From a virus (lineage: Duplodnaviria; Caudoviricetes), in IMG/VR virus record IMGVR_UViG_3300021376_000071, positions 1-56,120 of that record: 56,120 nucleotides of DNA; one strand, given 5' to 3'. A program made the translations under genes and the position numbers. A model generated the notes under the pieces. That model saw only the letters and a list, made by a program, of their open reading frames with translations, searched no databases and had not been told where the DNA came from. The stretch's first letter is position 1; every line of letters starts with the position of its first letter. Below, in pieces: positions 860 to 50,259 of the stretch.

Positions 860-3076
860 CTAAATGACTGTTTCTGAGGTTCCTTCTAGACCCTTGTAGG
901 ACCTGACTCTGTACGGCATGTTGTACGGAATCCAATCTTTGAGCGTTAAAAAGACACGTGGCATCTTCTTTAGACGACTAGGGTAGTTGTAAGAGTAGGA
1001 AGCGTGGGCTGTTCCAGACCAGAAGACACCATAATCGGCTGGCAAAGACCCATCAAAATAATCCGTTGGATAGAACGTTTGTTCGGCTTGAGTGTTATCA
1101 ATCCAAACGCTTTGTCCTGTAAGAGTGGCTGTAAGGGTAAAGGTTAAGGTTATGTTTCCAAGAACAGAGAGTCCTTCTGGAATAAACAACGATACATAAT
1201 ATCTATCCCAATCCGTTGTAACAGATATTTGTTTGTTTACTACTTCTGTATCTGGGCCATCATCATCTGCTGCCGTAAGAGCCATATTCATAGTTGTGTT
1301 AGCAGACGCTTTTAAATAACAAGAGAAGGTGTAGTTATTACCCTCAGTTAGTTTGTACGTAGTTGGTGTTTTATTAAGTATTTTGGAAAGACTAAAGTTG
1401 TTTTGACCTGTCAATAACATTGAAAATGAACCAGGAAGTCCTGGAGGAACAACCCCTACACGAGATACTGAAGAGTTAGTCGTCCATCCAGTTGTGTTTG
1501 TTTCAAATGATGGATTTGAATTGATGTTTACTTTTTCACTGCTTAAGAATATATCTAAACCACGTGCTTCATCAAAGTTAGTAGCAGTTGCTTGTGGAGC
1601 AAACTGAACCATGTCAATGTTATAGGTGTTTTGAGTTGTAAATTTAAATCTAACTGTCGCATAAACTGCAGTAACAGGTGCTGTTAGGTTCATGAAGAAC
1701 CTTTGATAAACGCCTGTAGTTCCGTTGGTGGTTGCTTCTGTAACTACAGAACTAACTTGAGTACCTAAGTAATCATGCCAAGTTACATCGGCAATAACAG
1801 TTCCGTTAGAGGCAGATGCTGCGTAGTAACTGAACCTATATGCGGTTCCACCAACTACTGGAATACCCTTAGTTACAGGGTTATCTTTTCCAAGACTGAT
1901 GTGAGATACGTCAGATATCGTTCCTGTAACAGTTCCTTCGTTTACGTTTGCTCCTGTGTTTGCGTAAGTAAAAGTAGTTGGAGAAGGAACAGAATCAATG
2001 GTGTGAGTGCCATTAAAGTCAGGCACTGAAACGCTTCCTATAGTTACACTATCGTTAGGTATCAATCCATGAGCAGCAGAAGAAGTAATGGTTGCAACGT
2101 TATTTGCTCTTGCAATTTTACTAACGGCTCCAGCAGAAGTTATAAACTTTCCAGACCAAACAGTGTTGACTGCGTTTGTTCCTGTAGGTCCTGGTTTCGT
2201 ACTGTCTGCAGTAAGATTTCCATAAGTATTTGTCCAGCGTCCAATACCTTCAGTGAATGAAGAGTCTTGAACATCAAGCATGAGATTTGGGCTAACAGTT
2301 ACTACAGGGTCATAGTTAGATACGGCTTCAATGTAGTTCTGAATACCAAGCAAAGTGCCTTTGTTTTGATATAAATAGATGGCTTCACGAATTAACTTCT
2401 TTTGATTTCGATATGGGAGACCGCGTTCTGGATACAACCCAATATTGTTTTCTAAAGGGGGCAATAAAGACGGAGGGGTTTTACGTCTTCCAAAATTTGG
2501 TTTTACTAATTCTGCATAGGTAAGAATTTGGTCAAAGGTAAAACTAAAAGGCTTTAGAAAATTATAAACAAAACTGTTTACATCAGGGACACCTGTAGGG
2601 CTTTGTTCTGCACTGGTATAAACTTTAGGCAATATCTCAAATAACTTTTTTTGACTGCCACGGTCAGAAGGCATTAGTGCAGTTGCATATCCAGCAGGGG
2701 TCCACAAATTAGAATTAGTAAATAACCAGATTGTGTAATAAATAAATTGGCCTTGTGCAACTGGTAAATCATTTATCGTATAACTGTCTAAAAAGTTGTC
2801 TTCGCCATCGGTAAAACTATTGCGATTTACTAATCCATTTAAAGAACTAGTAGACGACTGCTCCCAAAGAATAACTCCGTCTTGTTCTGTTTCTGCAAAG
2901 TTGTCGTTGTTTCTAACCAAACGGATTTTGGTAAAGTCACCAGAAGGTGCGTTCCAACTTACGTATATTTTTCCATAGTCAACGGCAGAAGCCTCCATTG
3001 GCTCTGCGTTATAAACAAGGCGAGGAGGATTACCATAAACAGCACCGCGATATACCGCACCTAAATACTTTGCCAC
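860..3076 (-). CDS. baseplate wedge protein (P2 gpI/tail-formation-like) with carbohydrate-binding-like domains
   Basis: FN3-like N-terminus; wedge motif LFEILPKVY..NFLKPFSFTFD..LIREAIYLYQNKGTLLGI; CBM-like NPSFETNTTGW..YTFSCYLK..WDRYYV..VWIDN; located in the baseplate/fibre block. Confidence 0.75.
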   Translation of the reverse strand: MAKYLGAVYRGAVYGNPPRLVYNAEPMEASAVDYGKIYVSWNAPSGDFTKIRLVRNNDNFAETEQDGVILWEQSSTSSLNGLVNRNSFTDGEDNFLDSYTINDLPVAQGQFIYYTIWLFTNSNLWTPAGYATALMPSDRGSQKKLFEILPKVYTSAEQSPTGVPDVNSFVYNFLKPFSFTFDQILTYAELVKPNFGRRKTPPSLLPPLENNIGLYPERGLPYRNQKKLIREAIYLYQNKGTLLGIQNYIEAVSNYDPVVTVSPNLMLDVQDSSFTEGIGRWTNTYGNLTADSTKPGPTGTNAVNTVWSGKFITSAGAVSKIARANNVATITSSAAHGLIPNDSVTIGSVSVPDFNGTHTIDSVPSPTTFTYANTGANVNEGTVTGTISDVSHISLGKDNPVTKGIPVVGGTAYRFSYYAASASNGTVIADVTWHDYLGTQVSSVVTEATTNGTTGVYQRFFMNLTAPVTAVYATVRFKFTTQNTYNIDMVQFAPQATATNFDEARGLDIFLSSEKVNINSNPSFETNTTGWTTNSSVSRVGVVPPGLPGSFSMLLTGQNNFSLSKILNKTPTTYKLTEGNNYTFSCYLKASANTTMNMALTAADDDGPDTEVVNKQISVTTDWDRYYVSLFIPEGLSVLGNITLTFTLTATLTGQSVWIDNTQAEQTFYPTDYFDGSLPADYGVFWSGTAHASYSYNYPSRLKKMPRVFLTLKDWIPYNMPYRVRSYKGLEGTSETVI

Positions 3077-3103: not shown

Positions 3104-3556
3104 TTAAGAAGTCAATTGAAATGCGTAATACGAAATCTTTAGTGGGAACCCTGTGCCTGAGTTACTGTTTGCGACAGCAACGTTCATATCTACTTCATAA
3201 CTAAAAGATGTTGTGCTTGTGCTTTTAATAGATACAAACCCATTAACACCTGTTGTTGGGTAAATAACAGTGGCTATTACGATAGGGATTTGAGTAAAAC
3301 GACCAGCATCAAAGTTCTTAGTTCCAATAATCAGTAGGTCACCTTGTGCAGATGTAGTTAAATTTACAGTCCCAATCTCCATTGCAAGCGGGATTTGAGC
3401 AGGACGAATAATTGGCGCATTAAAAGTATTTGTTCCAGCAAAGGTATTGTCATTTACTATACGGGCATATTGAGACAGGTCAGGATAAGCAACTGAGATA
3501 GATTCCCAGTCGGTTCCGTTCCATACTCGTGCTTCTCTATAAACTGTTGTTGGCAT
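3104..3556 (-). CDS. tail fibre / small receptor-binding protein
   Basis: N-terminal VWNGTDW, NTFAGTNTF fibre motif, C-terminal F..IPIVIAT..ISYYA beta-sandwich (H-lectin/gp53-like). Confidence 0.6.
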   Translation of the reverse strand: MPTTVYREARVWNGTDWESISVAYPDLSQYARIVNDNTFAGTNTFNAPIIRPAQIPLAMEIGTVNLTTSAQGDLLIIGTKNFDAGRFTQIPIVIATVIYPTTGVNGFVSIKSTSTTSFSYEVDMNVAVANSNSGTGFPLKISYYAFQLTS

Positions 3557-3558
3557 TT

Positions 3559-3762
3559 TTATCCTCTAGGAAGTCTAATGATTTTTTTGCCATCCCATTT
3601 ATCACCAGTTAGTGGGATATCTCCCATGTCAGGTGTATGTTCAACAATTGTTGGTTCGCTTGTTAATACTGCATTAAACCGTTCGTCAGTTCGTAATACA
3701 AAGACTATTTCTCCGTCAATTACGAAAAAAACAACGTTATTTGTTACGTATTCATCAGCCAT
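3559..3762 (-). CDS. putative tail fibre assembly/accessory protein
   Basis: Start reassigned to ATG at 3762 (AAGGAG RBS); FVIDGEIV..GDKWDG pattern typical of small fibre-associated proteins. Confidence 0.55.
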   Translation of the reverse strand: MADEYVTNNVVFFVIDGEIVFVLRTDERFNAVLTSEPTIVEHTPDMGDIPLTGDKWDGKKIIRLPRG

Positions 3763-4048
3763 TTGATTCTCCTTCGTTAGTTCCAACTGTAACAGCCTCC
3801 CACTTACCTACGGGACATGAAGCGTGAGGTAATTTGCATTTTTCTTTCATAAAACACCCACATTGTTTACAGGTAGTAGTCAACTTGATTAAGTGCTCAC
3901 AGTTAAGGCATAGGTCAAGGCGTTTGTTATACGTCTCATCATCAACACGACCAATTTTTGGATTGATAAGGTCCCAAGGACGTACTGAGTCTCCTGGTTG
4001 TTTCTCTTTCCAAATGTCCCAAGGTCTTTTCTTTGGTTGGCTTGTCAT
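3755..4048 (-). CDS. Cys-rich small protein (DUF6171-like), probable metal-binding
   Basis: RLDLCLNC..CKQCGCF..KC..CPVGKW; 7 Cys. Confidence 0.65.
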   Translation of the reverse strand: MTSQPKKRPWDIWKEKQPGDSVRPWDLINPKIGRVDDETYNKRLDLCLNCEHLIKLTTTCKQCGCFMKEKCKLPHASCPVGKWEAVTVGTNEGESNG

Positions 4049-5385
4049 GCTTCGTACACCTTTACCTCTACTGAGCCGATATTGCGACCATCTTCATAGT
4101 TGCTTGGAGCACCAAGTATGCCATAAGCAGTTGCTGCAGAGGTGCTGGCTACAGTTACATTTGTCCCAACTTGTTGTGTGTAAGCGGTGTCTTTAAAGGC
4201 TCTAATAGTTATTGAGTTGGCTGTTTTTGTTGCGGTCAAGGCGTTCCAACGTTCAGTAACCTGGGTATCAGAGATAACAGAAAGGTTACCTCCTTGTTTT
4301 CTAACTACTCGAATGTAAAAGAGGTCGTTGTAAGCGGTTTCTAACCTATCCACTTCGCAAACAAATCGAGTTCCAGACTGGCAGCAACTATAGTAAGGAA
4401 CCTGTTGATATCCAGTAGAGCAGGTAGAAGGGGTTGTTGTACATACTTCTTGGACTGCAGTTCCTGTACATACAGTTTGACATACTCCTGGAATAGTGAT
4501 TGGACATTCGCACACACAAATTGTGCTTCCTGCTGAGGTAGTACATTCGCCTGGAATTGTGCGAGTACAAGTGTCTCTATCGCAGCAAACAGTTGTGTAT
4601 GTAGTAACACAATTTTGTCTTGGAAAACAACGTGTTATACCGTCTTCTCTTACACATTGAGTATCTGTAGTACATGAAACAGTAGGGGTAGAGCATCGTC
4701 TAATACAGCAGTTATAGGACTCTGTTCTATCAGGTGCACAAGTGGTTACTCCTGGAACGTAATAACAGTTAGTACAAAACGGTGCTGAATTACAACCAAC
4801 CGTGGACTCACTACACACTTGACTACATCCAGTTTGAACGGTCTGGTTTACGCATGTTGTTGTTCCTGGTGTTTCAGTTCCAAAACAAACTGTGTTGTAA
4901 CCTGCTGGTTCCGTACAGTTTGCAATGCAGTAACTTTCATTACGACCAGAAACGCAAACAGAGTATTGATAAGAGGTTCGATTGTAATAGGGATACACAG
5001 CCCACCAGTTGTTAGTGTCTGTGTAGTTAAATACAAATCCCATACCTGGAGATAATTCGTTTGCTTTTGCAATAAAATCATAAAACCCAAGGTCTATTAC
5101 TGCTAATGGGTAGTCTGTTTTTGCACCTGTGGTATTAGCAAATCCGTTGTTAATTCGCCATTGACTAGAAATTATGCTCCAGGCTTGTCCTGTTTCAGCA
5201 GTTCCTAAACTGCTTGTAGTATCGGCTCTTGAGAAGGTGTCTTTTAAATCGGCAGCCCAAAACTGTCGCCATTGCCCATCAACTTTTACATAACCAAATG
5301 CGGCTTTTTTCCAACCACCATTAACCTTTGAAAAAAGGCCAGTCCCTGCTTTAAAGTTATTACTTACCTTAGAACCAATAGCCAT
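4045..5385 (-). CDS. tail-tip/receptor-binding protein: concanavalin-like beta-sandwich with a 32-Cys insertion
   Basis: N-terminal KVNGGWKK..YVKVDGQWRQFW adaptor motif; DTFSRAD..LGTAETGQAW lectin-like core; all 32 Cys lie in residues 144-343. Confidence 0.65.
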   Translation of the reverse strand: MAIGSKVSNNFKAGTGLFSKVNGGWKKAAFGYVKVDGQWRQFWAADLKDTFSRADTTSSLGTAETGQAWSIISSQWRINNGFANTTGAKTDYPLAVIDLGFYDFIAKANELSPGMGFVFNYTDTNNWWAVYPYYNRTSYQYSVCVSGRNESYCIANCTEPAGYNTVCFGTETPGTTTCVNQTVQTGCSQVCSESTVGCNSAPFCTNCYYVPGVTTCAPDRTESYNCCIRRCSTPTVSCTTDTQCVREDGITRCFPRQNCVTTYTTVCCDRDTCTRTIPGECTTSAGSTICVCECPITIPGVCQTVCTGTAVQEVCTTTPSTCSTGYQQVPYYSCCQSGTRFVCEVDRLETAYNDLFYIRVVRKQGGNLSVISDTQVTERWNALTATKTANSITIRAFKDTAYTQQVGTNVTVASTSAATAYGILGAPSNYEDGRNIGSVEVKVYEA

Positions 5386-5394
5386 TTAGGTTCC

Positions 5395-6060
5395 TTAAGC
5401 GAGGTACTTAATCCAGATATCTCCGTTATTACCACCCGTTGGGTCTGATGTAGACACCGTGATGTTACGAAGACGAGATGACAATGCTTGGTCGCCTGTA
5501 AGTGTTCCTCCTGTAATTTGGATGGTTGTATCTGCTGAAAGAACTGCTGGAATTGAATCTGAGTCAATCCATACAGTTCCTTGAGGAAGTGCTAAAGCCG
5601 CACCATCTGGCTGAGAGTCAGACCAAATGATTGGTTTAATCTCTTGGTTATTTACGTAAATTCGTCCCTGGTTATCAACTTTAGACATAGTTGTTCCACC
5701 AGAGTTTTTGAACTGAACAAGGTCAGCACTTTGGCTTGTAAAACCTTGCACTACTAAAGGAACGCTTGCTGCGTTTGCTGGTTGAAGGGTTCCGCCTGTG
5801 TACTTGAAGTACTGGTTGTGAACATCTCCCTTGATACCTTTTTCAATATTGGCAATACGAGCAGATAAGGTTGAAAATGTAGTAGTAGTGTCATCAAAAG
5901 AACCAACATATCCACCAGAAACGTTAGGGCTAACACCTACTACTGCTTGTGTAGAAGTTACTTCATCTTGCAGAGAGTTAATGTGTTCGGCAAGAATAAT
6001 ATCGGTGAAGTCCGTCTTATTGACGAACGACTTCACGCCTGAGGGATAAACAGCGGGCAT
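5395..6060 (-). CDS. tail fibre protein
   Basis: AEHINSLQDEV baseplate-anchor motif; two P..G(D/T)(I/V)W motifs, the last being the C-terminal DPTGGNNGDIWIKY. Confidence 0.65.
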   Translation of the reverse strand: MPAVYPSGVKSFVNKTDFTDIILAEHINSLQDEVTSTQAVVGVSPNVSGGYVGSFDDTTTTFSTLSARIANIEKGIKGDVHNQYFKYTGGTLQPANAASVPLVVQGFTSQSADLVQFKNSGGTTMSKVDNQGRIYVNNQEIKPIIWSDSQPDGAALALPQGTVWIDSDSIPAVLSADTTIQITGGTLTGDQALSSRLRNITVSTSDPTGGNNGDIWIKYLA

Positions 6061-6131: not shown

Positions 6132-6617
6132 TTATGGATGGCTATGGCTAATACTTGCTTTTTGAGTTATTTGAGATTCTAAAGCAACAATGCGTGTTTG
6201 GTGGTCTTTTAAAGCAGCAGCCATGGCTAGTAAGGTAGCAATAAGGTCAATTTCTGTAGTTCCATTTACAGTACTTTCTGTTTTAAAATATGGAGTTAAT
6301 CCTGTTAAAGAAACAGAGTCTGACAAAACTTTTACGTTTACACGTTTTCCTTTTTTGGGTTTTCCAAAGACACCTGCCCATACTGGATAAGCGGGGTCTC
6401 CACCCTCAAAAACAATCCAGACACCTTCACCAACGTCAGGAACTTGAGTTTTAAGACTTGACGTTTCTAAAGGCCATGCCCAATTGGTAGTAATGCCATC
6501 ACTGAGCATAGGTATTTGAACTTTAATTCTTCTATGTCCTTCTGGGTCTTTGTTATTTACAACAATGCCTCTATAAGTTCCGTAGAACTTTATAGAGTCG
6601 CTTATATTTAACGGCAT
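6132..6617 (-). CDS. baseplate central spike (gpV/gp5 OB-fold)
   Basis: YGTYRGIVVNNKDP..RIKVQIP..WAWP..PDVGEGVWIVFEGGDPAYPVW; C-terminal HSH. Confidence 0.85.
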   Translation of the reverse strand: MPLNISDSIKFYGTYRGIVVNNKDPEGHRRIKVQIPMLSDGITTNWAWPLETSSLKTQVPDVGEGVWIVFEGGDPAYPVWAGVFGKPKKGKRVNVKVLSDSVSLTGLTPYFKTESTVNGTTEIDLIATLLAMAAALKDHQTRIVALESQITQKASISHSHP

Positions 6618-8155
6618 TAAATAGCCTCAAGTAAGATATCTGGTTCAGCAAATGTAAGGACTTCATTGTTTAAGGCTTGAATTTGAGAAAGGCTTGGAGT
6701 TCCACCGCTTTTGTATAAGAACTGAATTTTTGCACGTGTAATACCAGGGATATTTTGAATAACAAACTCAACATCTTGAGCAGTAATTAACTCTCCAAAT
6801 TCAACATAGTTATAACTAAAGTTGTTTACTATTGCGGACCTTAAATTATTTTCAGCAACTGCTTGTGTATAAACAGAGTCGCGTGTGTATTGAATGTTCA
6901 TAGTTACTGGAACATAGGTAGGCTGTGTATAAGTAACGGTTACCCCAGCAAGAGTTCTATCAGCCAAAAACGACGTAACGCTGTCTCTCATGCTTGTCCA
7001 TTCAGATGTAGGAGTACCAGAAGATAAGCCTGGTGTTGCATCTCCGTCGTTGTCATCACGCTCTGGTGCAATGTAAAGAGTTACTGAGGTGTAGCCACTA
7101 GAAACAGCCTTTGCTTTACCGCAGTTATCTACAGATAAAGCCAGGTTTTCATAATCGTCTAGGGTTATTGCACGTCCTAATGTTCTTAAGAACTTCGGAG
7201 CATTTCTACGTATTGAATCATCAGACTCTGGGTCTGAACCACCAGTTCCCACAGAAGTATTAGCAACGTCAATAACTCCAGCAATTGCCGTTATTTGAGA
7301 TTCTGATAATCCTGGGATATAGGCTAAGGTATCAATAGTGTTTTGAGAAACATTGCCGAGTAGCCCTCCACCTGCAGTATAGACCGCTTTAACTGTTGCA
7401 TGAATAGTTGGGATGGCTCCTGAAACACCGTCTCCAAATAAAACAAATATTTTATTATCTTTATCAAAACGCGTTGTAAAAACAGCGTCGTTAGGACCGA
7501 AGTCAATTAGGTGTTGAACTTTTGTCCATTTTTTAAAGGTGTTTCCGCTTTCTACGTAAACCTCAATACTGTCAGAAACAACTGGGTCATCATCTAAGTT
7601 AAAGGTTTGGTCAGCCGTTCCATCAGAGTCGCCAAGGTCTACTCCGTAGATGCTTCCTGCTTCAACAGTGTTGTAAGCACCCTCTTCACTAAGAATTAAG
7701 ACCTCTCCCCGTGTACTGCCTACTGCTGCTGGAACAGTGGCATTTGCAAGGGTTGAAAATGTAACGGTTTGAACAGAAGTTTCTCCAATTACTTCTCCAG
7801 TAACACGAGTACCAGCAGGAAGGACTATCTGAGTTCCTGAGTTGTTATAGAAAGTAATAAAGCATGTTGCGTTTTTATAACCAGTTGGGGTGTAACCGTA
7901 AGTCTCTGCTAAAGCCAAAATAGTATCGCGTTGAGTTGCGGTTGCAATAAACTGCTCGTTAGCAACACGGTCAATGTAATAACTAGCAATGTCTCCCATG
8001 TAAGCAAAGGCTTCAATTAACGCTAGACCAAAGTCAGATTGGTCATTACCCGACCACTCAGGGATGTTCTTTTTAACGCGAGCAATTAACTCTTCACGAA
8101 TCGCGAAAAAGTCTCGGTTTGTGTAATCAACCGTTACTGGTGTGTCTTCAGCCAT
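6617..8155 (-). CDS. baseplate J-like wedge protein
   Basis: VDYTNRDF..DFGLALIEAFAY..FGDG..GGSDPES..RAITLDDYE. Confidence 0.92.
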   Translation of the reverse strand: MAEDTPVTVDYTNRDFFAIREELIARVKKNIPEWSGNDQSDFGLALIEAFAYMGDIASYYIDRVANEQFIATATQRDTILALAETYGYTPTGYKNATCFITFYNNSGTQIVLPAGTRVTGEVIGETSVQTVTFSTLANATVPAAVGSTRGEVLILSEEGAYNTVEAGSIYGVDLGDSDGTADQTFNLDDDPVVSDSIEVYVESGNTFKKWTKVQHLIDFGPNDAVFTTRFDKDNKIFVLFGDGVSGAIPTIHATVKAVYTAGGGLLGNVSQNTIDTLAYIPGLSESQITAIAGVIDVANTSVGTGGSDPESDDSIRRNAPKFLRTLGRAITLDDYENLALSVDNCGKAKAVSSGYTSVTLYIAPERDDNDGDATPGLSSGTPTSEWTSMRDSVTSFLADRTLAGVTVTYTQPTYVPVTMNIQYTRDSVYTQAVAENNLRSAIVNNFSYNYVEFGELITAQDVEFVIQNIPGITRAKIQFLYKSGGTPSLSQIQALNNEVLTFAEPDILLEAI

Positions 8156-14076: not shown

Positions 14077-14226
14077 CTAATAGCCTTCTTTAGCAATTTC
14101 AATCCAGTTACGTCTTTCTCTTACCGAAAGTTCTTTAATCTCAGTAAGAGTCCAACCTGGATGTCTGTCAGATAACGCCATGAACTCAGCCAGTAGCGTT
14201 GAGTAGTCCGTAGTATTAGAAACGAA
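14077..14226 (-). CDS. second tail-assembly-chaperone segment (T4 gp51/DUF6760-like), probably expressed by +1 frameshift from the upstream gene
   Basis: Manual translation of the +1 frame: [49 protein letters not shown]; fills the gap before the tape measure gene. Confidence 0.7.
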
Positions 14227-15037
14227 ATAAGGTTCCCAGGTTTGCTGGGACACTTACCTCACTTTCGCAGTCGGGACAACTACCTATTACGTCTTCAAAT
14301 AGTGGACCAAAGTTACGTTTATTAATTTGTTCCGCAATCTTGCGACGGTCGGTAATGCCAAGGTTTTGAACCTGTGCTTTACCTATTACGTCCGTATCGT
14401 CAATAGTCAGGACGCAGTTTTCTAACAAGATAGTGGTTAACTCTGCAACGCTTTTATCTACATTGCTTACAAGGTCTTTTTGAGTATGGCCTGTTGGAAG
14501 AACGACCGTGCACTTGCCTACCTTGCAGTCAACATTGAATCGGCGTTCTTTTGGATTGAGCATTGGGCGAACTTTTATGTCTTTATCAATGTCTATCTCA
14601 ATCGTTTTTAACTCAGCACACTTGTTACAGATGCCTTGCAAATTTGCTTTGTTTCCAAAAGTTGCTCTGTAAATAGCAAGCATTAAGAAGTCTCTGTCAC
14701 CAGCAAGGAGAGAATCAAGCATTTCTTCTGTTGCTTTTTCGTCTCCGATTCGAACAACACCACGGTCAAGAATTGAAAGCAATGCTTTGCCTACCGAAGT
14801 AGAACGAGAGATTGCCTCTTCATCTTTGCCGTTTAGTTCTCTAACTTCGACCTCTTTAATGATTTCCCCAGCGGGACTTACGTACCCGCCAGGAATAATC
14901 ACGACAGTGTCAGAAGGAGGCATAATTGTCACTGGCTTTTGCTCAACTTTATCGTTGGCAACAACCTGAGCAATCATGCTGTTAACTAGTTCGGGATTGT
15001 CAGCCGCTTTAACAGTTTGGTCTGTTTTTGTAGTCAA
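14216..15037 (-). CDS. tail assembly chaperone / baseplate hub assembly protein (T4 gp26-like)
   Basis: EVRELNGKDEE..LLAGDRDFLMLAIYRATFG, two CxxC pairs; lies between the tube and tape measure genes. Confidence 0.8.
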   Translation of the reverse strand: MTTKTDQTVKAADNPELVNSMIAQVVANDKVEQKPVTIMPPSDTVVIIPGGYVSPAGEIIKEVEVRELNGKDEEAISRSTSVGKALLSILDRGVVRIGDEKATEEMLDSLLAGDRDFLMLAIYRATFGNKANLQGICNKCAELKTIEIDIDKDIKVRPMLNPKERRFNVDCKVGKCTVVLPTGHTQKDLVSNVDKSVAELTTILLENCVLTIDDTDVIGKAQVQNLGITDRRKIAEQINKRNFGPLFEDVIGSCPDCESEVSVPANLGTLFRF

Positions 15038-19591: not shown

Positions 19592-20142
19592 TGGACTTCC
19601 TTCGTTGATAGGGCGTACTGTTTAAATTGTGGGTCATTGACCAACTCCTCAGAGTTGACCTCAGTGCAATCAACCGTGACTACTGCCCAGTTGTAACCAA
19701 AGTGACCACGGGGATTTACACGAGTTGGATTAAACACATTACCTCTGTAAAGGATACGGTCTTTAATGTGTTTTTGAGGGTTGACTAACATCTCAGGAAC
19801 AAGTCTTTGAACATCTCCTACGTTCAACACTATTCTAAGAGAGTCGACTACGTAGAAACCGCGTTCGTTCATTTCGTTTCCTCCACGAACCAATTGTACG
19901 GTTACGCAAGGCATATTGAAAGGAAGCATCCAACGACGACCTTCTCCAGGGGTGAAACTAGAGGTGTCGTATACGTCGTCTACGATAGCGGTAACGTTCT
20001 CATCTAGGTAGTACTCACTCCACCTAAACCAGTCAACATCAACACCTACAGGATGCTGTATGTCTTCCTTTATGGATTCATACATTCGCTTTTGTTCAAA
20101 GTCCATGTTGAAACGGCCTTGCATCCTGCTGCCTCGCATCAA
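19588..20142 (-). CDS. putative head-closure/head-tail joining protein
   Basis: 184 aa; DDVYD..NERGFY..KDRILYRGNVF beta-rich stopper-like pattern; position. Confidence 0.55.
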   Translation of the reverse strand: MMRGSRMQGRFNMDFEQKRMYESIKEDIQHPVGVDVDWFRWSEYYLDENVTAIVDDVYDTSSFTPGEGRRWMLPFNMPCVTVQLVRGGNEMNERGFYVVDSLRIVLNVGDVQRLVPEMLVNPQKHIKDRILYRGNVFNPTRVNPRGHFGYNWAVVTVDCTEVNSEELVNDPQFKQYALSTKEVQ

Positions 20143-21188
20143 GACTCCTTATAGAACTCTAAGTTCTTCTTTAGACGTTTGTCTGTAGGGTTAAGGTTAA
20201 GGGCTTCTTGACCAAACGTCAGGGCTTCCTCTTTATAACCTAAATTATGAGCAGCAATTGCTGCTATGTCATAGGGAAAATCGCTCCACACTTTAGGGTC
20301 ATTTAGGTATTGAAGAGGCTTTTCTTTAATCTCAATCGCTCTTAAACAAGATGCGTAACACTCTCTCCATAATTCGTTTTCGTAGTAGTACTCTGCTAGT
20401 TCTACCCATGGTTCTCTACCTTCTGGATATTCAAGAGCAGCCTTCTTAAACCATTCTTCTCGTTCCTTACCTTCAGAACATTTAGCAATATACCTCATAG
20501 AGGCAGCACGTTCTGGTTTCCATACGGCTCGTTTTAAAGACAGATGGCGTTGAAGTTCTTCTTTAGCCTTGTCACACATTTGATGAAAAAAGTATTCCCG
20601 TCCTAAATAATGAGAGTTACGGTCATCTTCAGGGTCTTCAGCAACAGCCAGTTCTAACATGGGGAAATATTGACTACGAGATTTTGATTGGTCTGGATGA
20701 TGGTGAATTTGTAGCCCAATCCACTCTTGGACTTCTGGTATTAGGTAACTGTTTAATACTTCGTGTACTGGATGTTTCCAACGATATCCTTGACGAGCAT
20801 GAATTTTATCTCCACCGTAAACAAGTCCTTCTGAACCATCTGCGTTCCAAGACCACACGTATTTATATCGTGGTCTTGTTACAGTGCTTGGTGTTTTTTC
20901 TATATGTTCTCTCCAACCTGGAGCAAGAACTTCGTCAACGTCTAAAGCAATACAATAATCGATGTCTGTAGGAATATGAGAAAGAGAAGCATTGCGAGCA
21001 TCATCAAAACGCCAGGGTTTAATTCGTATATCTACGACGTGTATCCCTAACTCACGGGCTAATTCAACTGTTCCATCAGTAGACCCAGTATCAGCAAGAA
21101 GAAAAAAGTCTGCTTCTTTTGCTGACTCATACCACCTTTGAACAAATTGTTTTTCGTTTAAAGCGATGCTGTAGACCGCTATTTTCAT
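20139..21188 (-). CDS. glycosyltransferase family 2 with C-terminal TPRs
   Basis: KIAVYSIALNE..DTGSTDGT..WRFDDARNASL..LDVDE (DxD)..VHE; TPR-like C-terminus. Confidence 0.9.
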   Translation of the reverse strand: MKIAVYSIALNEKQFVQRWYESAKEADFFLLADTGSTDGTVELARELGIHVVDIRIKPWRFDDARNASLSHIPTDIDYCIALDVDEVLAPGWREHIEKTPSTVTRPRYKYVWSWNADGSEGLVYGGDKIHARQGYRWKHPVHEVLNSYLIPEVQEWIGLQIHHHPDQSKSRSQYFPMLELAVAEDPEDDRNSHYLGREYFFHQMCDKAKEELQRHLSLKRAVWKPERAASMRYIAKCSEGKEREEWFKKAALEYPEGREPWVELAEYYYENELWRECYASCLRAIEIKEKPLQYLNDPKVWSDFPYDIAAIAAHNLGYKEEALTFGQEALNLNPTDKRLKKNLEFYKES

Positions 21189-21205: not shown

Positions 21206-22024
21206 TTATATTCTTAGCCCTGATGAACCCATTCCTGAATGTATAGCGCAGTTGTAATAAACAGGGCTTGTAAAGTTGTAGGCTATTACGGCAGTTACCT
21301 TTCGGTTAGTAGCACTCGCACTCCAAGCAGCAGAATACGCAGTAAATGTTGTGTAGGTATAAGCGTCTATAGTGTAAGTAACTCCTTGTGCTGAGTTAAG
21401 AGCAGAGGCTGTGTTGTCTTGAGCAGAAGACAGATAGAACGGATGACCGTCAACGGTATCGCTAGATACGTCAAATACATAGGTCATTCCTGGAAGTAAC
21501 TTTAGTTGTGGGGTTTGAACGCCATCAACAAAGTAGTAATTACTTCCAAGGACAGACTGCACAGTAATGATATGAGTGATGACTGCTGTACCAGCAGGTC
21601 CAGCGTTACCTTGAACTCCAGCAGCACCTGTTGGTCCTGTTGGTCCTGTAGGTCCTGCAACGTTTGAATCAGCACCTGTTGGACCAGTTGGTCCAGTTAC
21701 TGTTGATGCTGGTCCAGTAGCACCTGTTGGGCCAACACCGCCTTCTGCACCTGTTGGTCCTGTTGGTCCTCCTACTCCAGTAGCACCTGTTGGTCCTGTA
21801 GGTCCAATAGAGCCAACTGGTCCAGTAGGTCCAGTAGGTCCGTCTGGTCCTGTTGGGCCAGTTGGTCCACCAGAGGGACCTGTTGGTCCTTGTGGTCCAG
21901 TCGGTCCTTCAGGTCCACCAGAAGGTCCTGTTGGTCCTGTAGGACCTGCAGCACCTGCTGGACCTTGAACGCCTTGTTCAATGCTTACCCAAGCGGAACC
22001 ATTCCAATACTTTAACTGTGGCAT
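21206..22024 (-). CDS. collagen-like (GPT) fibre protein with C-terminal beta-sandwich domain
   Basis: Gly-X-Y repeats; [30 protein letters not shown]. Confidence 0.8.
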
Positions 22025-23879: not shown

Positions 23880-26800
23880 TTAAGCCTGTGCTTCAGTCCA
23901 CGTTAACTTTGCTGAACAGAGTGTAGTATTACCAGTCAAGCGAGCAGCAGCAATTGTCAAAATGTCTGGTCCATCTGGGAATACTGAGTCTCCACCAAGA
24001 ATTGAGTTTGATAACTCAAACAAATCTCCGATATCCACAGTAGTCGACTGTTCTACACCGTTCTGACCAGCAGCACGGAAGTTATAAATTTGAGTACCGC
24101 CAGAAACTGTGTCGTTACCAGTGTGTTGGATAATTTGAGTCAACGAAGGAGAAGTCACTGCAGAAAAGTTTAAGTTGTTCAAACGAGGGTTAATAAGAAC
24201 CTTTACGTCAACCAACTGTGTTGTTTGAACAGCAAGTTCTACCATTCGCAACTGCATGCGGTTAATAACGTCACGGTCACCAAGTTTTCCAGTCAAACCG
24301 CTTGAAACCGAAGGAGACAGGCGGATTGAAAGAAGTGGTTGATAGTTAGCACCAGAAGAGTTGTTTAAAGAACCCTGTGGGTACAAGAAGAATGTGTATT
24401 GAGCATTACCTTGAGAAGTAAAGTCAATTGTGTTAGTTCCACCACTAGCATTGGCATCCGCTGCTGTTGGGTGAAGCGTTACGTTGTTTGCATCTACTGC
24501 ACGTATAAATAGCAAAGGAGTGCTATTTTGTAAATTAACAAAGTTGTAGGCTGGGTTTTGTGCAACAACTCTTGGGTTTTGTGAATTTGCACCTGTAATT
24601 CCTTGAGCAGTTAAACCAATAAACTGAACAGGTGTTCCTGTTGTAAATCCGTGTGTAGGAATGTTGATTTGGTTTGTTGTAACGTTAATTGCTGTTGAAC
24701 CAAAGGTCTTTGCTGTGGTTCCAGAAATTGTAAGAGTCTGACCAGGTTGTGAGAAGAGGTAGGCTTTATCATCATCAAACTTACCGTCCATGATGACTGA
24801 AGTACCCCAGTGGAATAAGAACGGAATATAAGTTGGGTCAGTGTAGGTAGTTACCTCATAGCGAGTAGGTAAGTTACCTGAGCGGAAATATGATTCTAAC
24901 TGGAAGTTATTGTGAATAAATTCGTGAACATATTGAACTTCGCCCTCTTTAGTCTTAAAGCCGTAACGAATCTTACCCGCACCGTACCAAGAGTAGTCAA
25001 TGTAAGCCATTTGAATCTTGTTTAGGTCAAGGTTATATCCAGTTGGACCTGTGCCATCGCAAGGGTCAATAGACCAGTTTTCTTGAGGAGTACGAGTATC
25101 TACTGTCTTAGTCATGATAATACCGCTCTTTGCTGGAGTGAAAGAGTGTGGTGTTCCTGAACCAGCAGAAGAAATAGCAACAACAACTGTTGCATCTGGT
25201 GATGCTTTTAATTTGAACTGATTATTGTCAATAAAATCAACGTAGTAGACGCGACCGTTAATTAAACCACCAATAGGTGTTCCATCAATTGAATCGTAAA
25301 TAACTGGAAGATTATTAGAGAATCCATGATTTTGTAAAACAAAAGAATCATCTGCAGCACGAACTACGCCTGTATTTCCATCTCCAGGGTTGAACTCTTT
25401 TTCAATACCATTTGAACCTTTGTATTCAGGCTTAATGGTTAAACGTGTATCACTAACGATGCTAGAAATCTTGTAAGACTGACCACGCATAACAATGTAG
25501 TCTCCAACGTTAAGTTGCGTTGTAAATGTTGTCCCAGTACCAAATACGTATTCAGTTCCTTGCAGAGCAGCAGCAGTACCAGCAACTTGTTGAGTTGAAG
25601 AACGACGAACTGCATAAATTTTTTGTCCATCAAACTCAAAAAACATTCCGTTTTGGAAATCAAACATACCAGCACGGATTGCACCATTTTGCCAACTATC
25701 TACGTTAAATTGTGGGAATCCATAAGCAATGTTGTTTGGTGCTGTTGGTACTGTAGAGGACGCAATACAAGTAAAGGTTAACGAATCAATAACTGTTACT
25801 TGGAAAATACCGTTGTAAACAGTGCTTAGTGCACCTAGGTTTGTCCTAGACTCAGAAATTTCAATGTACAAACCATTAATAAGACCATGAGGACGACGAG
25901 TTACACATTGGAATGTGGTATTGCTGACTCGACTTATCTTCTCAATATCAATTGTAGGTTTGAAGTTAATACCAAATGAAGTTTGCAAACCTTTACCAGA
26001 CTGATAACGGAAGTACTTACGAGTCTGACGAATAATCTGAGCATTAGAGGTTCCAACACCAGTCGACATTTCAACTCCACCGTCAAACGGTCTGTGAAGT
26101 GAGTATCCTTGTGGACGTACATAAACAAACGTCTGATATGAGTAAGACACAGAGGAGTAAGATGCTGCGTATGGTCTGTTAAGAGTTATCTGAGTATCAG
26201 AACCAATAGCAGTAATTGTTCTAATAATTGGAGCAGTTGGAATAGTTTCGGTAAAGGTGTGAGTAGTTCCAGAACCCTGAGTAGTTACAACTACTGGGTT
26301 TGTATTGGTATTTGCATCGTTTAAAGTGTTAAATAAACGAATTGTGTTTGCATCTATCCTTCTAACAAAGTAGAAGAAAGTAGAGTTCAAACCTGTAGGA
26401 GCAACGGAACCAGCACCTGTATTGTACTGAACGCAATCTCCTGTCGTAAATCCGTGTCCTGTAAGCGTAAATTGGTTTGTTGGCTGAACCGCAACGTTAG
26501 TACTAGAGAAAGTAGACACAGTAGTTGTGTTTGGTGGGAACAAGCGGAACTTGTCACCAACTTTAAGAATCTTAGCAAATGAAGTGTTTACACCATTTAC
26601 AAGGGTTGAACCTGAAGCCACACTTACGGTTCCAGAACCAGTTACAAACCCATTAATTTGAGCAGTTGTAAGGGTGTGGTCTACACCGCCACCCCATGAA
26701 GTCAAAGTCAAAGCAATACCAGATGCAGCGTTTTCTTCAGAAGAGGCTAACTGAATATAGTCTTTGCTTACGTTGATTACGTAATAGTTACTTTCATTAG

Positions 26801-29471
26801 TTAAACCTCCAACGTTTGTTCCACCAGCATTGCTGTAAGTAACCTTTGTACCAGTAATAAATCCGTGTGAAGGAATACGCAGGTTATTAGCAGCAAGGTC
26901 AATAACAGAACGTGGAGTAAACGTCTTTATGATGAAAGGAACGAATCCATTAGCAGGAACTGTAAAGGTTGTTGTAGAGGGAACCGCATTAACTGTGTAG
27001 GTTCCATCTGGAGACTTAGTCAAAGACAATATTCTATGACGACCAGCACCAGCAGTTGTTAAGTTAACAGGTACTGGGGTAGCAGCAGTAGCATTATCCA
27101 AAGTTGCGGCTAATCTTAGGTTGTCTCCGTCTATTTGGATAATGTAGTACGGATTACCAGAAACTAAACCACCGATAGCAGTCTGACCAACAGAGTCATA
27201 CTGAACAAGTTCTCCGTTAGAGAATCCGTGAGAAGGAATTGAGATGGTATCTGTAACAAAATCAACAGAGTTTGTAGTAATTGAGTGGTTTCCAGTACCT
27301 AACGAAGTCAGGTTAATAATGTTTGTTCCTTCTTTGTTACTTGCTAAACGAAGAATGTTATTATCAACTTTAGAGATAAAGTAAGAACCATTGTTAGTTA
27401 AACCACCGATAACGGTTCCACCACCTGAAGAATAAACAATGCGAGAACCAGTAACTAAATCATGGCCTGGAACGTAAAGGCTATCTTCATCTAGGTTAAC
27501 AACCACGTAGATAAATGAGTGTGTATTTCCAGTTCCTGCAGAAGTAAAGTCAATTACTGGACCATTTAAAGACTGGCTTAACTGAATGTTATTGCTATCG
27601 ACTACTGTCTTTACGTAATAGGTAGCGTTATTTTGAAGAGGAGCAATTGATGTTCCACCACCATTTGAATAACGAATTGGCTGATTTGCCAAGAAACCGT
27701 GAGATGGAATGGTGATGATGTCTGTAGAAGTATTTACAACAACCTTTCCAAATTGTTCGCTACTTGTAGTAGCACTTGGAATTGTAAAGTTTACGTTGGT
27801 AAAATTAGGTGCTGGAGTTGTGCTTAGTTTGTAAGTCCAGTTATTAATACGGTTTACATAATAAGTAGTAGTTGTGTTTAATGGTGTAGCACCAGTTCCA
27901 GTCAAACGATAGACCAGAGCATCTCCATTAGAAAGCCCGTGACCATCAGCAACGTTGATTGTATCTGCATCTAAGTCTAGAGTGATTGGGTGTACTGCGT
28001 GATACTCGCTTCCTGCTGCAACAATATTGATTTGATTTGTTCCATCATTTGCATCTTGAGCAGTTGGATGGAATGTAAACGCACTAGAAGCCGTAGATAA
28101 CAAAGTAACAACAACTTCACCTTCATTATTGCCTGTGTTATAAGCACCGATATTAGTAATTGTTGCTCCGCCAAATGATGATGAACCATTGTATTGACCA
28201 GTAGAAGTAGCAACGTTTGTAGCACCAGTTACGATAAAGGAACCGCCACCACCGCCAGGGGCTGTGCCTTGAGCGTTACCACCAGCACCACCAGAGTAAC
28301 CACCAGCACCACCAGGAGCACCGTAGGCTTGACCGTCAGAACCAGCACCTCCGCCAAAACCACCGTGTCCAGAAGAACTACCAGCACCACTACCACCAAC
28401 AAGACCGTTGTTGAAACCGCCACCACCGCCACCGTATGAAGAGTTACCACCAGCAGTTAGGAAACCACCTCCACCACCACCAGCAGTTGCACCAGGAGCA
28501 CCGTTACCATTAGCACCTGCCGTTGCATTTGCATTATCACCGTTATTGGTTAGAACAGCGTTACGTCCACCAGTTGTATTTGAGGAAGCAGAACCTCCAC
28601 CTGCAACAAAAAGAGGTACGTTTCCTGATTTACGAACAACAAATGTAGCACCTGAAGAAGCGGGCCAAGCATCGTTGTTTCCTGGGTTTTCACCACGTTG
28701 TCCAACAGCAATAGTTATGATTTCGCCACGAGTTAAGTCAACTCGTCCTTGAACGATTGCACCGCCACCACCTGCTGCACGACCTGCTTTACCAGGAGCA
28801 CCCTTTACGTTGAATTCATAGGTTCCATTAACTGGAACAGTCCAATCTTGATAACCCTGATAACTTCCTTGGTTAAAGTAAGCGGTGTTGGTTGCCCATG
28901 TTGCACCAGCCGTATTATAAGCAGAAACTAAAGTAGAAAGAGCAGGGCCATTACGTCCAGTAGTTCCACCTGTTGTGAATGTAAGAGTAGTAAAGTTATA
29001 CAAAGGAGCAGCAGTGTCAGAGAAGGCTGTTGAAGTCTTCTTTAAGTAATAAGTGTTTCCAGAGGTTAATCCAGAAAGAGGAGTGCTGTTTGTGTAGTAC
29101 TTAACTGCTTGATTGGTTGGGTAGTTACTGCTTATATGTAGTTTGTTTCCATAAACAAATGGGAAGTCAAGAGTGATGTTTCCAGTTGTAAGATTAGTAA
29201 TGTCAATTGCAGCACCACCGCTAGTATTCGAAAATGTGATTTTGCGGTCTTCAACAACGTTTGTAAATACTAAGTTTCCAGAAGTAAGACCTGTTAATGC
29301 ACCAGTTCCATCACGATAGATGAAAGGTCGATTTGCTCCAGCAGCAATTGCAGCGGGAGTTACTTCATTAACTGTTTTGTTTACGTAGACAAAGTTATCT
29401 TCAATGTTTACGTTAGTTTTTGACAACGAGTGAGTACCGCTAGTACCAGCCGCAGTTATATTAATGGGCAT
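23880..29471 (-). CDS. giant virion fibre/decoration protein with about 10 HG(F/L)-type beta repeats and a Gly-rich domain
   Basis: 1863 aa; repeats such as HGFxTGxxVxYxxxGxxxIGGLxxxxxYYV; Gly-rich domain; RQTRKYFRYQSGKG, WYGAGKIRYG and PLLSIRL core motifs. Confidence 0.75.
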   Translation of the reverse strand: MPINITAAGTSGTHSLSKTNVNIEDNFVYVNKTVNEVTPAAIAAGANRPFIYRDGTGALTGLTSGNLVFTNVVEDRKITFSNTSGGAAIDITNLTTGNITLDFPFVYGNKLHISSNYPTNQAVKYYTNSTPLSGLTSGNTYYLKKTSTAFSDTAAPLYNFTTLTFTTGGTTGRNGPALSTLVSAYNTAGATWATNTAYFNQGSYQGYQDWTVPVNGTYEFNVKGAPGKAGRAAGGGGAIVQGRVDLTRGEIITIAVGQRGENPGNNDAWPASSGATFVVRKSGNVPLFVAGGGSASSNTTGGRNAVLTNNGDNANATAGANGNGAPGATAGGGGGGFLTAGGNSSYGGGGGGFNNGLVGGSGAGSSSGHGGFGGGAGSDGQAYGAPGGAGGYSGGAGGNAQGTAPGGGGGSFIVTGATNVATSTGQYNGSSSFGGATITNIGAYNTGNNEGEVVVTLLSTASSAFTFHPTAQDANDGTNQINIVAAGSEYHAVHPITLDLDADTINVADGHGLSNGDALVYRLTGTGATPLNTTTTYYVNRINNWTYKLSTTPAPNFTNVNFTIPSATTSSEQFGKVVVNTSTDIITIPSHGFLANQPIRYSNGGGTSIAPLQNNATYYVKTVVDSNNIQLSQSLNGPVIDFTSAGTGNTHSFIYVVVNLDEDSLYVPGHDLVTGSRIVYSSGGGTVIGGLTNNGSYFISKVDNNILRLASNKEGTNIINLTSLGTGNHSITTNSVDFVTDTISIPSHGFSNGELVQYDSVGQTAIGGLVSGNPYYIIQIDGDNLRLAATLDNATAATPVPVNLTTAGAGRHRILSLTKSPDGTYTVNAVPSTTTFTVPANGFVPFIIKTFTPRSVIDLAANNLRIPSHGFITGTKVTYSNAGGTNVGGLTNESNYYVINVSKDYIQLASSEENAASGIALTLTSWGGGVDHTLTTAQINGFVTGSGTVSVASGSTLVNGVNTSFAKILKVGDKFRLFPPNTTTVSTFSSTNVAVQPTNQFTLTGHGFTTGDCVQYNTGAGSVAPTGLNSTFFYFVRRIDANTIRLFNTLNDANTNTNPVVVTTQGSGTTHTFTETIPTAPIIRTITAIGSDTQITLNRPYAASYSSVSYSYQTFVYVRPQGYSLHRPFDGGVEMSTGVGTSNAQIIRQTRKYFRYQSGKGLQTSFGINFKPTIDIEKISRVSNTTFQCVTRRPHGLINGLYIEISESRTNLGALSTVYNGIFQVTVIDSLTFTCIASSTVPTAPNNIAYGFPQFNVDSWQNGAIRAGMFDFQNGMFFEFDGQKIYAVRRSSTQQVAGTAAALQGTEYVFGTGTTFTTQLNVGDYIVMRGQSYKISSIVSDTRLTIKPEYKGSNGIEKEFNPGDGNTGVVRAADDSFVLQNHGFSNNLPVIYDSIDGTPIGGLINGRVYYVDFIDNNQFKLKASPDATVVVAISSAGSGTPHSFTPAKSGIIMTKTVDTRTPQENWSIDPCDGTGPTGYNLDLNKIQMAYIDYSWYGAGKIRYGFKTKEGEVQYVHEFIHNNFQLESYFRSGNLPTRYEVTTYTDPTYIPFLFHWGTSVIMDGKFDDDKAYLFSQPGQTLTISGTTAKTFGSTAINVTTNQINIPTHGFTTGTPVQFIGLTAQGITGANSQNPRVVAQNPAYNFVNLQNSTPLLFIRAVDANNVTLHPTAADANASGGTNTIDFTSQGNAQYTFFLYPQGSLNNSSGANYQPLLSIRLSPSVSSGLTGKLGDRDVINRMQLRMVELAVQTTQLVDVKVLINPRLNNLNFSAVTSPSLTQIIQHTGNDTVSGGTQIYNFRAAGQNGVEQSTTVDIGDLFELSNSILGGDSVFPDGPDILTIAAARLTGNTTLCSAKLTWTEAQA

Positions 29472-46284: not shown

Positions 46285-46452
46285 CTAATCCTCTTCTTTA
46301 TTTCTCAATGGGTAAGTAATTCCCCAAAGAACAATTGTTCCCAAAGTTGCCCAGCCAACAACGGTCTTTGCAGACCCATCAAGCACAACCCAGGCAATAA
46401 ACATTCCTAGAAGTGTCCAGGACTGTTCAAGAAAGTCTTTCAGTATTTTCAA
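46285..46452 (-). CDS. small 2-TM membrane protein
   Basis: Manual (TTG start overlapping the upstream stop): [55 protein letters not shown]. Confidence 0.65.
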
Positions 46453-50080: not shown

Positions 50081-50259
50081 GTAGTTACCAATGATGGATG
50101 AATAACAAACTCAGGGTCTTCAACACTTAGTGAGACTTCTTTAATTTTAATCGCGTATTTCTTAGCGTGGTGTCCACAGAAGAAGAGTTCTCCATTCAGC
50201 ATTACGGCCCGTACCTTTGCCACAGCAGAACAACGGTCACAACGGTCGTTAACGTTCAT
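50077..50259 (-). CDS. small Zn-binding protein of actinobacterial type
   Basis: DRCDRC..GELFFCGHH motif. Confidence 0.7.
   Translation of the reverse strand: MNVNDRCDRCSAVAKVRAVMLNGELFFCGHHAKKYAIKIKEVSLSVEDPEFVIHPSLVTT

Follow-up and report, generated by a model that had tools for sequence, protein, structure and literature searches.

A predicted 16-rung cysteine-ladder hairpin in a lectin-like protein from the baseplate gene module of a lake-water phage

Introduction

What does a phage build from 32 cysteines crowded into the middle of a single protein? The question is raised by an open reading frame (ORF) of 446 codons plus a stop (4045..5385, minus strand, from the ORF list and its translation), referred to here as the ladder gene. 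It lies in IMG/VR record IMGVR_UViG_3300021376_000071, a complete 56,120-bp contig of a lake-water phage, and the window analysed is this contig at its full length. A sequence-only reading had described the product as a lectin-like tail-tip protein into which one very long, cysteine-stapled antiparallel hairpin is inserted, and the analysis reported here largely supports that interpretation. The reading that we favour, with moderate confidence, is that of a baseplate protein of the receptor-binding type carrying a disulfide-braced beta-ribbon stalk whose distal half varies most. Baseplate lectins of phages are a known kind of protein; the 16-rung ladder stalk is new as far as the searches reported below extend.

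Results

Mirror symmetry of the cysteine pattern

A scripted count places all 32 cysteines of the 446-aa protein within residues 144-343 (nucleotides 4357-4956), with 16 on each side of the centre C244-VREDGITR-C253, as had been read by eye. The left-arm cysteines are residues 144, 153, 157, 167, 178, 187, 191, 198, 204, 207, 216, 226, 227, 231, 238 and 244, and those of the right arm are residues 253, 259, 267, 268, 273, 281, 290, 292, 294, 302, 306, 315, 322, 334, 335 and 343. Counted from the centre outward, the gaps are 6,7,4,1,10,9,3,6,7,4,9,11,10,4,9 on the left and 6,8,1,5,8,9,2,2,8,4,9,7,12,1,8 on the right, which reproduces each of the mirrored pairings listed in the sequence-only reading. 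The symmetry was evaluated by permuting the 31 gaps 100,000 times. The summed absolute difference between left and right gaps is 26, compared with 54.1 ± 8.4 in the permutations (P = 4.6e-4), and the correlation of the mirrored gaps is 0.75 (P = 5.6e-4), so that both measures give a P of about 5e-4. In contrast, a tandem arrangement with the gaps taken in direct order is unsupported by the same permutations (sum 70, P = 0.98).

The insert is rich in threonine and valine, as stated earlier (T 40, C 32 and V 19 of 200 residues), and K, L, M, H and W are absent from these 200 residues. The other proteins of the phage are cysteine-poor, with 0-3 cysteines in most structural proteins; the only other cysteine-rich structural protein is a T4_baseplate-family protein of 273 aa (14216-15037, minus strand) with 7 cysteines and two CxxC motifs. 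When one arm was aligned to the reversed other arm, a z of 2.4 was obtained with the cysteines in place and 0.3 with the cysteines masked; because of this collapse, the likeness of the arms is limited to their cysteines. There is no DNA repeat within the ladder gene and no second copy of the cysteine-ladder region in the 56,120-bp genome. An origin by DNA repeat or duplication was rejected on these grounds. Diversification by a diversity-generating retroelement was likewise rejected, since no template repeat is present and blastn of the gene against the 56,120-bp genome returned chance matches of 19-25 nt only.

Nested gain and loss of cysteines in close relatives

A large metagenomic protein collection yielded 66 matches, none of which bears a functional name. 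The alignment comprises the query and 65 relatives (66 sequences), with the 296-aa partial match P0067 left out. Cysteine counts are even in 66/66 aligned sequences and range from 14 to 34. Among the 46 distinct spacing patterns, mirror symmetry is significant at P<0.05 in 46/46 and at P<0.01 in 45/46, the worst being P0052 at 0.04; homologues with asymmetric spacing, which the sequence-only reading would have taken as evidence against a hairpin, were thus not found in this set. The three closest relatives, P0002-P0004, keep 32/32 cysteines at a non-cysteine insert identity of 0.55-0.78.

The connectivity can be read from patterns that differ by exactly two cysteines and otherwise match (L1 distance ≤ 6). 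In 33 of 37 such pattern pairs the two differing cysteines are nested partners, of rank r and n+1-r, for which the chance expectation is ~5% each, and in 1/37 they are neighbours. Mirrored gaps covary among the close relatives with r 0.83 (444 pairs) vs 0.19 in direct order, and the lengths of the two arms covary with r 0.84. Compensating paired changes on both arms, which had been named as something to look for in homologues, are therefore evident. On the MAFFT alignment, the partner columns are most consistent under nested pairing (0.82), less so under sequential pairing (0.62) and least under tandem pairing (0.35). This column covariation is noisy because cysteine columns are misaligned in the low-complexity arms, and the alignment-free spacing tests were therefore relied on instead. 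The connectivity found is the nested one of a cystine-ladder hairpin, from which local clusters deviate; close to CC clusters, strict nesting probably breaks down.

Predicted structure of the insert

The AlphaFold2 model, computed on the 66-row alignment, has a mean predicted local distance difference test (pLDDT) score of 84 and a predicted template modelling (pTM) score of 0.56. In this model, outgoing strands at residues 126-167, 176-191, 206-210/214-216 and 220-247 lead to a turn at 248-249, and returning strands follow at 250-277, 281-283/287-291, 302-317 and 326-364. The strand breaks are mirror-placed on the two arms, with 220-247 opposite 250-277, 206-216 opposite 281-291, 176-191 opposite 302-317 and 126-167 opposite 326-364. 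Two antiparallel strands joined by a single two-residue turn make up a hairpin, here by prediction. The ascending arm covers residues 144-247 (4645..4956, minus strand) and the descending arm residues 250-343 (4357..4638, minus strand), each with 16 cysteines. Between them the tip turn D-G at residues 248-249 (4639..4644, minus strand) is the sole break between strands 220-247 and 250-277. The insert was proposed to be one very long antiparallel hairpin, and the mirrored segments agree with this at ~100 residues per arm; we regard the hairpin topology as highly probable. The two segments that flank the insert, WWAVYPYY (127-134) and FYIRVVRK (356-363), lie in the continuous strands 126-167 and 326-364. 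Both had been named as adjacent core strands, and in the model they form the roots of the ribbon.

From the strand ends, registers of i+j = 497 in the distal segment and 493 in the middle segment were derived. With these strand-end registers, which are not S-S distances, seven of the 16 rank pairs are exactly opposite each other (C207:C290, C216:C281, C238:C259, C244:C253, C178:C315, C187:C306 and C191:C302), and C231:C267 is one residue out of register. Since the turn has two residues, C244:C253 and C238:C259 would by beta-sheet geometry occupy non-hydrogen-bonded positions, which is the geometry preferred by cross-strand disulfides. The suggested pairing of Cys i with Cys 33-i is supported by the 33/37 nested gains and losses and by the seven opposed rank pairs, but probably does not hold strictly at the CC clusters.

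The beta-moments of six arm segments fall within the shuffled range. There is no alternating hydrophobicity, and both faces of the ribbon are thus polar. At ~3.3 Å per residue and ~100 residues per arm, the ribbon would be at most ~30 nm long. The length of tens of nanometres suggested earlier holds up to ~30 nm for a straight ribbon, but as an upper bound only, given the three mirrored kinks; that the ribbon stands free, and how far it reaches, follow from the model conditionally. A three-copy complex prediction of residues 120-370 scored 0.00, which bears neither for nor against an oligomer. At E ≤ 1e-3, Foldseek found nothing similar in the PDB.

Chemistry of the cysteine pairs

Relatives have cysteine counts such as 14, 18, 22, 26 and 34, none of which is divisible by four, and the spacing between rungs is mostly 6-12 residues. 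The insert has one CxxC motif and no histidine, and histidine makes up 0.1% of family inserts. The marks of an intrachain metal site, cysteines in fours or histidines, are therefore missing, and an intrachain Cys4 site is excluded by the counts together with the rung spacing. Disulfides are the simplest chemistry, because the evolutionary unit is the pair, the rungs are too far apart for intrachain Cys4, histidine is lacking and the counts are even. Even cysteine counts are typical of oxidised extracellular proteins, and together with nested pairing they are the usual signature of disulfides. That the cysteine pairs are disulfides is in our judgement likely. Functional disulfides have been described in the baseplate and fibres of the freshwater cyanophage Pam3 (PMC9942802).

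The lectin-fold core

An exhaustive structural comparison of the model, with matches spanning residues 46-446, assigns residues 46-143 and 344-446 to the concanavalin-A-like lectin/carbohydrate-binding module (CBM) fold. The first half of this beta-sandwich (4957..5250, minus strand) is delimited by VIA-align matches and the second (4048..4356, minus strand) by AlphaFold2 and the structural comparison. The closest match is CBM66 (4b1m) with a Z of 16.8 and a root-mean-square deviation of 2.3 Å over 147/165 aligned residues. It is followed by the receptor-binding domain of TM4 gp23 (9n6a, Z 14.8), the Douge baseplate chain 8zdo_a at residues 111-311 (Z 14.2) and J-1 Dit CBM2 (5ly8, Z 13.1), and many lectin, GH16 and GH43-C entries lie at Z 11-15. 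The two-sheet sandwich superimposes over most of the core, and the earlier description of the core as lectin-like is borne out both by CBM66 and by the matches to baseplate modules. By length and range, the Douge chain fits BppU. The CBM of Douge BppU is described as binding mycobacterial glycans (PMC13033339).

In BFVD, six proteins from uncultured Caudovirales phages, all of them uncharacterised, match significantly (E 9e-19 to 3e-10); next in the ranking are minor tail proteins from phages of Gordonia, Arthrobacter, Rhodococcus and Streptomyces. On the basis of the modelled fold, the ladder protein is a putative carbohydrate-binding protein of the receptor-binding type. Ligand residues are not transferable to the core at the ~10% identity that it has with the matched structures.

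Variation along the protein

Mean identity to the 65 relatives is highest, at 0.69, in the N-terminal 45 residues (5251..5385, minus strand), for which AlphaFold2 predicts short strands at 5-49 and which would serve in attachment. It is 0.59 and 0.43 in the two core halves, 0.35-0.38 in the proximal arms and 0.20-0.29 in the distal arms. A hypervariable tip loop, as had been envisaged, is not supported by the relatives: the distal arms vary most, and the tip is conserved within the subfamily. Tip residues 245-252 are 62-88% identical to the query in most of P0002-P0020 (P0014 and P0015 being at 0 and P0018 at 0.38), and 75% identical in the distant P0062 and P0065. Between subfamilies, the gap at the centre differs in length, from 4 to 34 residues.

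Four mosaic relatives (P0022, P0028, P0040 and P0057, at loci L015-L017 and L030) are 60-69% identical to the query over their first 146-167 residues and strongly diverged over the rest, a pattern suggestive of recombination close to the base of the insert or at the base itself. In the search of the protein collection, four relatives have an identity of 61-69% that is confined to the first 37-38% of the protein. Mosaicism of this kind is common among receptor-binding proteins. The sequence turns up again in metagenome runs from lake water, with 16 of the 24 listed runs, perhaps of one campaign, holding at least half of the sampled words; none of the listed holders is an RNA run. Contigs from 4 of the 24 listed runs are at least 99% identical. 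The one difference is at 4855, where a lake-water run (X8) has G for T in the Thr177 codon of the insert, at the third position; the other three runs show no difference in the parts of the gene that they cover.

The wider family

When 1.84 billion representatives were searched with a profile, 1691 proteins matched at E ≤ 1e-3, all of them from uncultured phages; 362 reached 1e-10 and 46 reached 1e-30. We examined the best 150 matches, 146 of them new; 20 shorter than 260 or longer than 700 aa were dropped and 126 were analysed. The number of cysteines in the cluster is even in 110 of these and odd in 6, several of the latter due to stray nearby cysteines, and 10 have fewer than 6 cysteines. 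Mirror symmetry reaches P<0.05 in 43/110 vs 8/110 for direct order. The arms are 16 to 236 residues long, and the lengths of left and right arms are correlated with r 0.81. Some of the ladders are very regular, one with 14 cysteines at a 12-residue spacing, and another has 36 cysteines.

Three members without cysteines, P0095, P0149 and P0171, carry low-complexity inserts rich in Tyr, Pro, Ser and Gly at the same insertion point. Two of the cysteine-free members have a tip motif in common with a cysteine-bearing member; the central motif D-[GA]-F-R-G-Y-Y-Y is common to the cysteine-free P0171 and the 14-Cys P0167. These sequences suggest that an aromatic zipper can stand in for the cysteine rungs. 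The element common to the family is a stalk of two arms that is inserted into the core at a single site; cysteine rungs are its usual brace and not the sole one. It is also noted that giant proteins of 1260-2470 aa (P0077, P0101, P0110, P0122, P0139, P0159, P0160, P0185 and P0188) repeat the first core half 4-8 times in tandem; the copies cover profile positions ~47-128, each with a cysteine pair 8-10 residues apart.

No family was found for the 446-aa protein in Pfam at E ≤ 1 or in NCBIfam, and PHROG 25859 and 36019, both of unknown function, match weakly and at the N-terminus only. No match came from a tblastn search of 50,697 phage records with the protein, a profile search of the sequences of solved structures gave nothing below E 0.3, and a scan of GTDB species genomes gave a single spurious 25-residue match, with no prophage or host clue.

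Gene neighbourhood, phage and host

The ladder gene belongs to a minus-strand series that starts with the sheath and tube genes and continues with a T4-baseplate-like protein, a tape measure with an M23 peptidase domain, a gpD-like hub, a Baseplate_J wedge protein (6617-8155, Pfam PF04865), a Phage_base_V spike OB-domain protein (6132-6617, Pfam PF04717) and a 221-aa fibre-like protein. A match to PHROG 219 falls among the spike/wedge gene pair (6132..8155). The 221-aa upstream neighbour (5395..6060) has a tail-fibre-like C-terminus, matching PHROG 14064 'tail fiber protein' at residues 195-219 (E 7.6e-5). Beyond the ladder gene follow a DUF6171 gene, a 75-aa and a 150-aa ORF, and a 738-aa protein (860..3076) with a CBM_4_9 domain (Pfam PF02018, E 2.6e-9) and a weak P2 gpI-like match (PF09684) below the cut-off. 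This 56-kb lake-water phage is a myovirus, with sheath and tube genes. The sequence-only reading had placed the protein at the tail tip; what the gene order supports is a protein of the baseplate module. The phage is probably an actinophage with a host among freshwater Actinomycetota, and its capsid protein is 61% identical to capsids of Streptomyces phages.

The DUF6171 gene (97 aa, 3755..4048, minus strand; Pfam PF19668, E 5.3e-7; PHROG 13558) shares an ATGA overlap with the stop of the ladder gene, and a DUF6171 homologue of 91-98 aa is directly downstream of the ladder-gene relative in 25 of 27 loci examined. Six cysteines are invariant (C47, C50, C60, C63, C65 and C78), within the motifs C-x2-C, C-x2-C-x-C and C-P-x-G-x-W. 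Its AlphaFold2 model (pLDDT 74.7) matches no solved chain at Z ≥ 2; the sequence search of solved structures returned designed repeat proteins only, with no stretch passing, and no mention of DUF6171 was found in the literature. At locus L038 a homologue is at 3938-4273. In Synechococcus phage S-SRM01 a homologue is encoded just downstream of a gp38-like adhesin with 11 cysteines, and in Stenotrophomonas phage IME-SM1 one occurs among small early genes. Among isolated phages the surroundings of the gene thus vary, so that a role as a dedicated oxidase or chaperone is no more than a guess; DUF6171 is put forward purely as a hypothetical partner or assembly factor of the ladder protein.

Several other genes in the window, all on the minus strand, may be mentioned. 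A start motif of the W-x-G-x-x-W type (for example KVDGQWRQF) was seen by eye in the tail proteins at 3104-3556, 21206-22024 and 4045-5385, and may represent a common attachment module. A glycosyltransferase-like gene (20139-21188, PHROG 13126, E 9e-115) lies inside the structural module beside collagen-like fibre genes, and a second one is at 53576-54232. Others encode an unannotated 1863-aa ORF (23880-29471), a 902-aa protein with a PA14 domain (46449-49157), a DUF7455 protein (50077-50259) and an S-adenosylmethionine-decarboxylase-like protein (54489-54953).

Discussion

Proposed architecture and its weaknesses

In the arrangement that we favour, residues 1-45 would fix the protein to the baseplate and residues 46-143 and 344-446 would fold as a concanavalin-A-like carbohydrate-binding sandwich, two adjacent strands of which would run outward as one antiparallel beta-ribbon of ~100 residues per arm, with three mirrored kinks and the two-residue turn D248-G249. 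Such a ribbon would have no hydrophobic core and would be held by 16 Cys-Cys rungs between its strands. Apart from the local three-Cys clusters on each arm, the rungs would follow the nested order, Cys i with Cys 33-i, and they would most simply be disulfides in the oxidised, released virion. The outcome would be a thin, stiff stalk, resistant to shear and proteases and up to ~30 nm long if straight, which would project from the lectin head and whose distal half would diverge fastest. The stalk might contact or thread the host envelope during adsorption, although for this host-contact role we consider the chances evenly balanced.

A bolder version can be put forward tentatively. In it, the insert would be a free-standing single-chain nanorod of ~25-30 nm, and of about twice that length in 46-Cys relatives, made of two strands and a serial disulfide ladder and without a described precedent. 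It would evolve by gain or loss of whole rungs or by a swap to a Tyr zipper, its oxidation would be aided by the translationally coupled DUF6171, and its reduction on reaching the host surface would serve as the redox signal that sets off infection. We consider this version as a whole rather doubtful.

A number of points weigh against the favoured architecture. Virions assemble in a reducing cytoplasm, and yet 16 disulfides would have to form at some stage. Nesting fails in four of the 37 gain/loss comparisons, all four beside CC-type clusters, and in the model the cluster C226/C227/C231 and its counterpart C267/C268/C273 are staggered by 1-2 residues. The pTM is just 0.56, the pLDDT dips at 193-202 and at ~290-300, and the ribbon may bend or fold back at the kinks. 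It should be mentioned that AlphaFold2 and the cysteine covariation are not independent, because both use the same alignment. In the wider family, mirror symmetry is significant in only 43 of 110 proteins, and because the cysteine-free relatives carry Tyr-rich inserts, the stalk can exist without cysteines. The conservation of the tip within the subfamily is more readily explained by a structural turn than by a binding loop. Finally, the host assignment is based on the 61% capsid identity and on fold and feature neighbours.

Alternative readings

The alternative that survives best keeps the hairpin and gives it a structural or regulatory task inside the baseplate, as a strut, a ruler or a redox-sensitive latch that helps to trigger contraction. 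Pam3 provides a parallel, as it sheds its fibres and contracts its tail under dithiothreitol (DTT; PMC9942802). The position of the ladder gene among wedge genes and the conserved tip motif of the subfamily would also agree with such a task. However, the distal ribbon is the part that diverges fastest, and arms of 16-236 residues would be unusual in a part that has to fit fixed partners; what is conserved is the N-terminal region, as in receptor-binding proteins. We consider a baseplate strut or latch unlikely.

Less probable still is a metal-stapled oligomeric fibre like the T4 gp37 needle, in which each cysteine pair would supply half of a Zn or Fe site to which two or three chains contribute. 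Two-cysteine half-sites would also produce pairwise gain and loss of cysteines, and the adjoining DUF6171 has a six-cysteine motif resembling a metal site. Nevertheless, the insert offers no histidine and a single CxxC, even counts with nested pairing are what disulfides usually give, and we know of no precedent for interchain Cys4 or Cys6 ladders. This reading appears improbable to us.

Should the insert instead be a string of small local disulfide modules of the EGF, TNFR or granulin type, its mirror symmetry would be a coincidence. Some features do repeat in direct order: CCxxxC and CCxxxxC occur in the same N-to-C orientation on both arms of the query, the spacings 2,3,5,10 in P0107 and 5,1,10 in P0200 are directly repeated, and P0172 has a CxCxxC cluster at each end. 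The query nonetheless lacks direct-order similarity (P 0.98) and any Pfam match at E ≤ 1, EGF and TNFR families included; differing cysteines are neighbours in 1/37 comparisons and nested in 33/37, sequential pairing is less consistent than nested (0.62 against 0.82), and the AlphaFold2 strands are long and continuous. Tandem local domains, which the sequence-only reading had named as an outcome that would refute the hairpin, were rejected on this evidence, and we hold them to be very improbable. Hardly more credible is a beta-barrel tube or membrane pore assembled from several hairpins, as in beta-pore-forming toxins or the tail hairpin tube of phi29-like phages: pore-form toxins and podovirus tail chains with long hairpins do head the Foldseek list (E 0.025-0.2), but none of these entries is significant, no segment has a beta-moment above the shuffled ones or an alternating hydrophobic pattern, and the phage already has a sheath, a tube and a spike.

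Significance

If the disulfide-braced ribbon is as we propose, it would exceed in length, as far as we know, every two-stranded beta-hairpin and every serial cystine ladder described so far, and it would mean that a stiff rod tens of nanometres long is possible from one chain without a hydrophobic core. This would have a bearing on protein design and on how receptors behind thick or layered envelopes come within reach of phages. With many members, none of them characterised, and no Pfam entry, the family is a blind spot in freshwater viromes that the finding annotates. Its clean pairwise gain and loss of cysteines constitutes a natural data set on the evolution of disulfides. How a phage that assembles in a reducing cytoplasm oxidises 16 cysteine pairs in register becomes a testable question.

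Comparison with known systems

The sequence-only reading did not recognise the architecture among described phage receptor-binding proteins, and we also found none in the literature, Pfam, NCBIfam or the PDB; the literature search, which returned no described equivalent, excludes subscription journals and supplementary files. The nearest relatives in fold are the BppU CBM of Douge gp23, TM4 gp23, the CBM2 of J-1 Dit, and CBM66, all of which have the same sandwich as the core of the ladder protein (Z 13.1-16.8, 147-179 residues aligned). Like the ladder protein, the Douge, TM4 and J-1 modules are located in the tail or baseplate and have an N-terminal attachment part followed by a lectin head. 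In contrast, they and CBM66 are without the 200-residue cysteine-ladder insert and share 10-11% identity with the ladder protein. Douge is reportedly a siphophage, whereas the phage described here is a myovirus.

The disulfides of Pam3 resemble the ladder in occurring in the tail or baseplate of an environmental phage despite assembly in the cytoplasm. Agrobacterium phage Milano and the tail tube of a siphovirus are also said to have disulfide-bonded tails. In all three, a few inter-subunit or intra-domain bonds act as locks, which differs from a serial intrachain ladder that builds a rod.

The T4 gp37 needle is an interwoven trimer stapled by histidine-bound iron, and the stalk of the bovine ultralong CDR-H3 is short and without rungs, its disulfides being in the knob. 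In both, as in the ladder protein, the chain runs out to a tip and back, so that an elongated projection holds the binding end at a distance from the body, but the ladder insert has no histidine. The antifreeze beta-helix of Tenebrio is Thr/Cys-rich, with a regular row of disulfides in which neighbouring cysteines are paired within 12-residue coils. It shares with the ladder an elongated beta structure of Thr/Cys-rich composition, whereas the pairing in the ladder is long-range and nested. Theta-defensins, protegrins and tachyplesins are free hairpin peptides of ~17-18 residues with 2-3 nested disulfide rungs and no hydrophobic core. They and the ladder are both cross-braced hairpins; the ladder has 16 rungs over ~200 residues, sits inside a folded domain, is kinked and includes three-Cys clusters.

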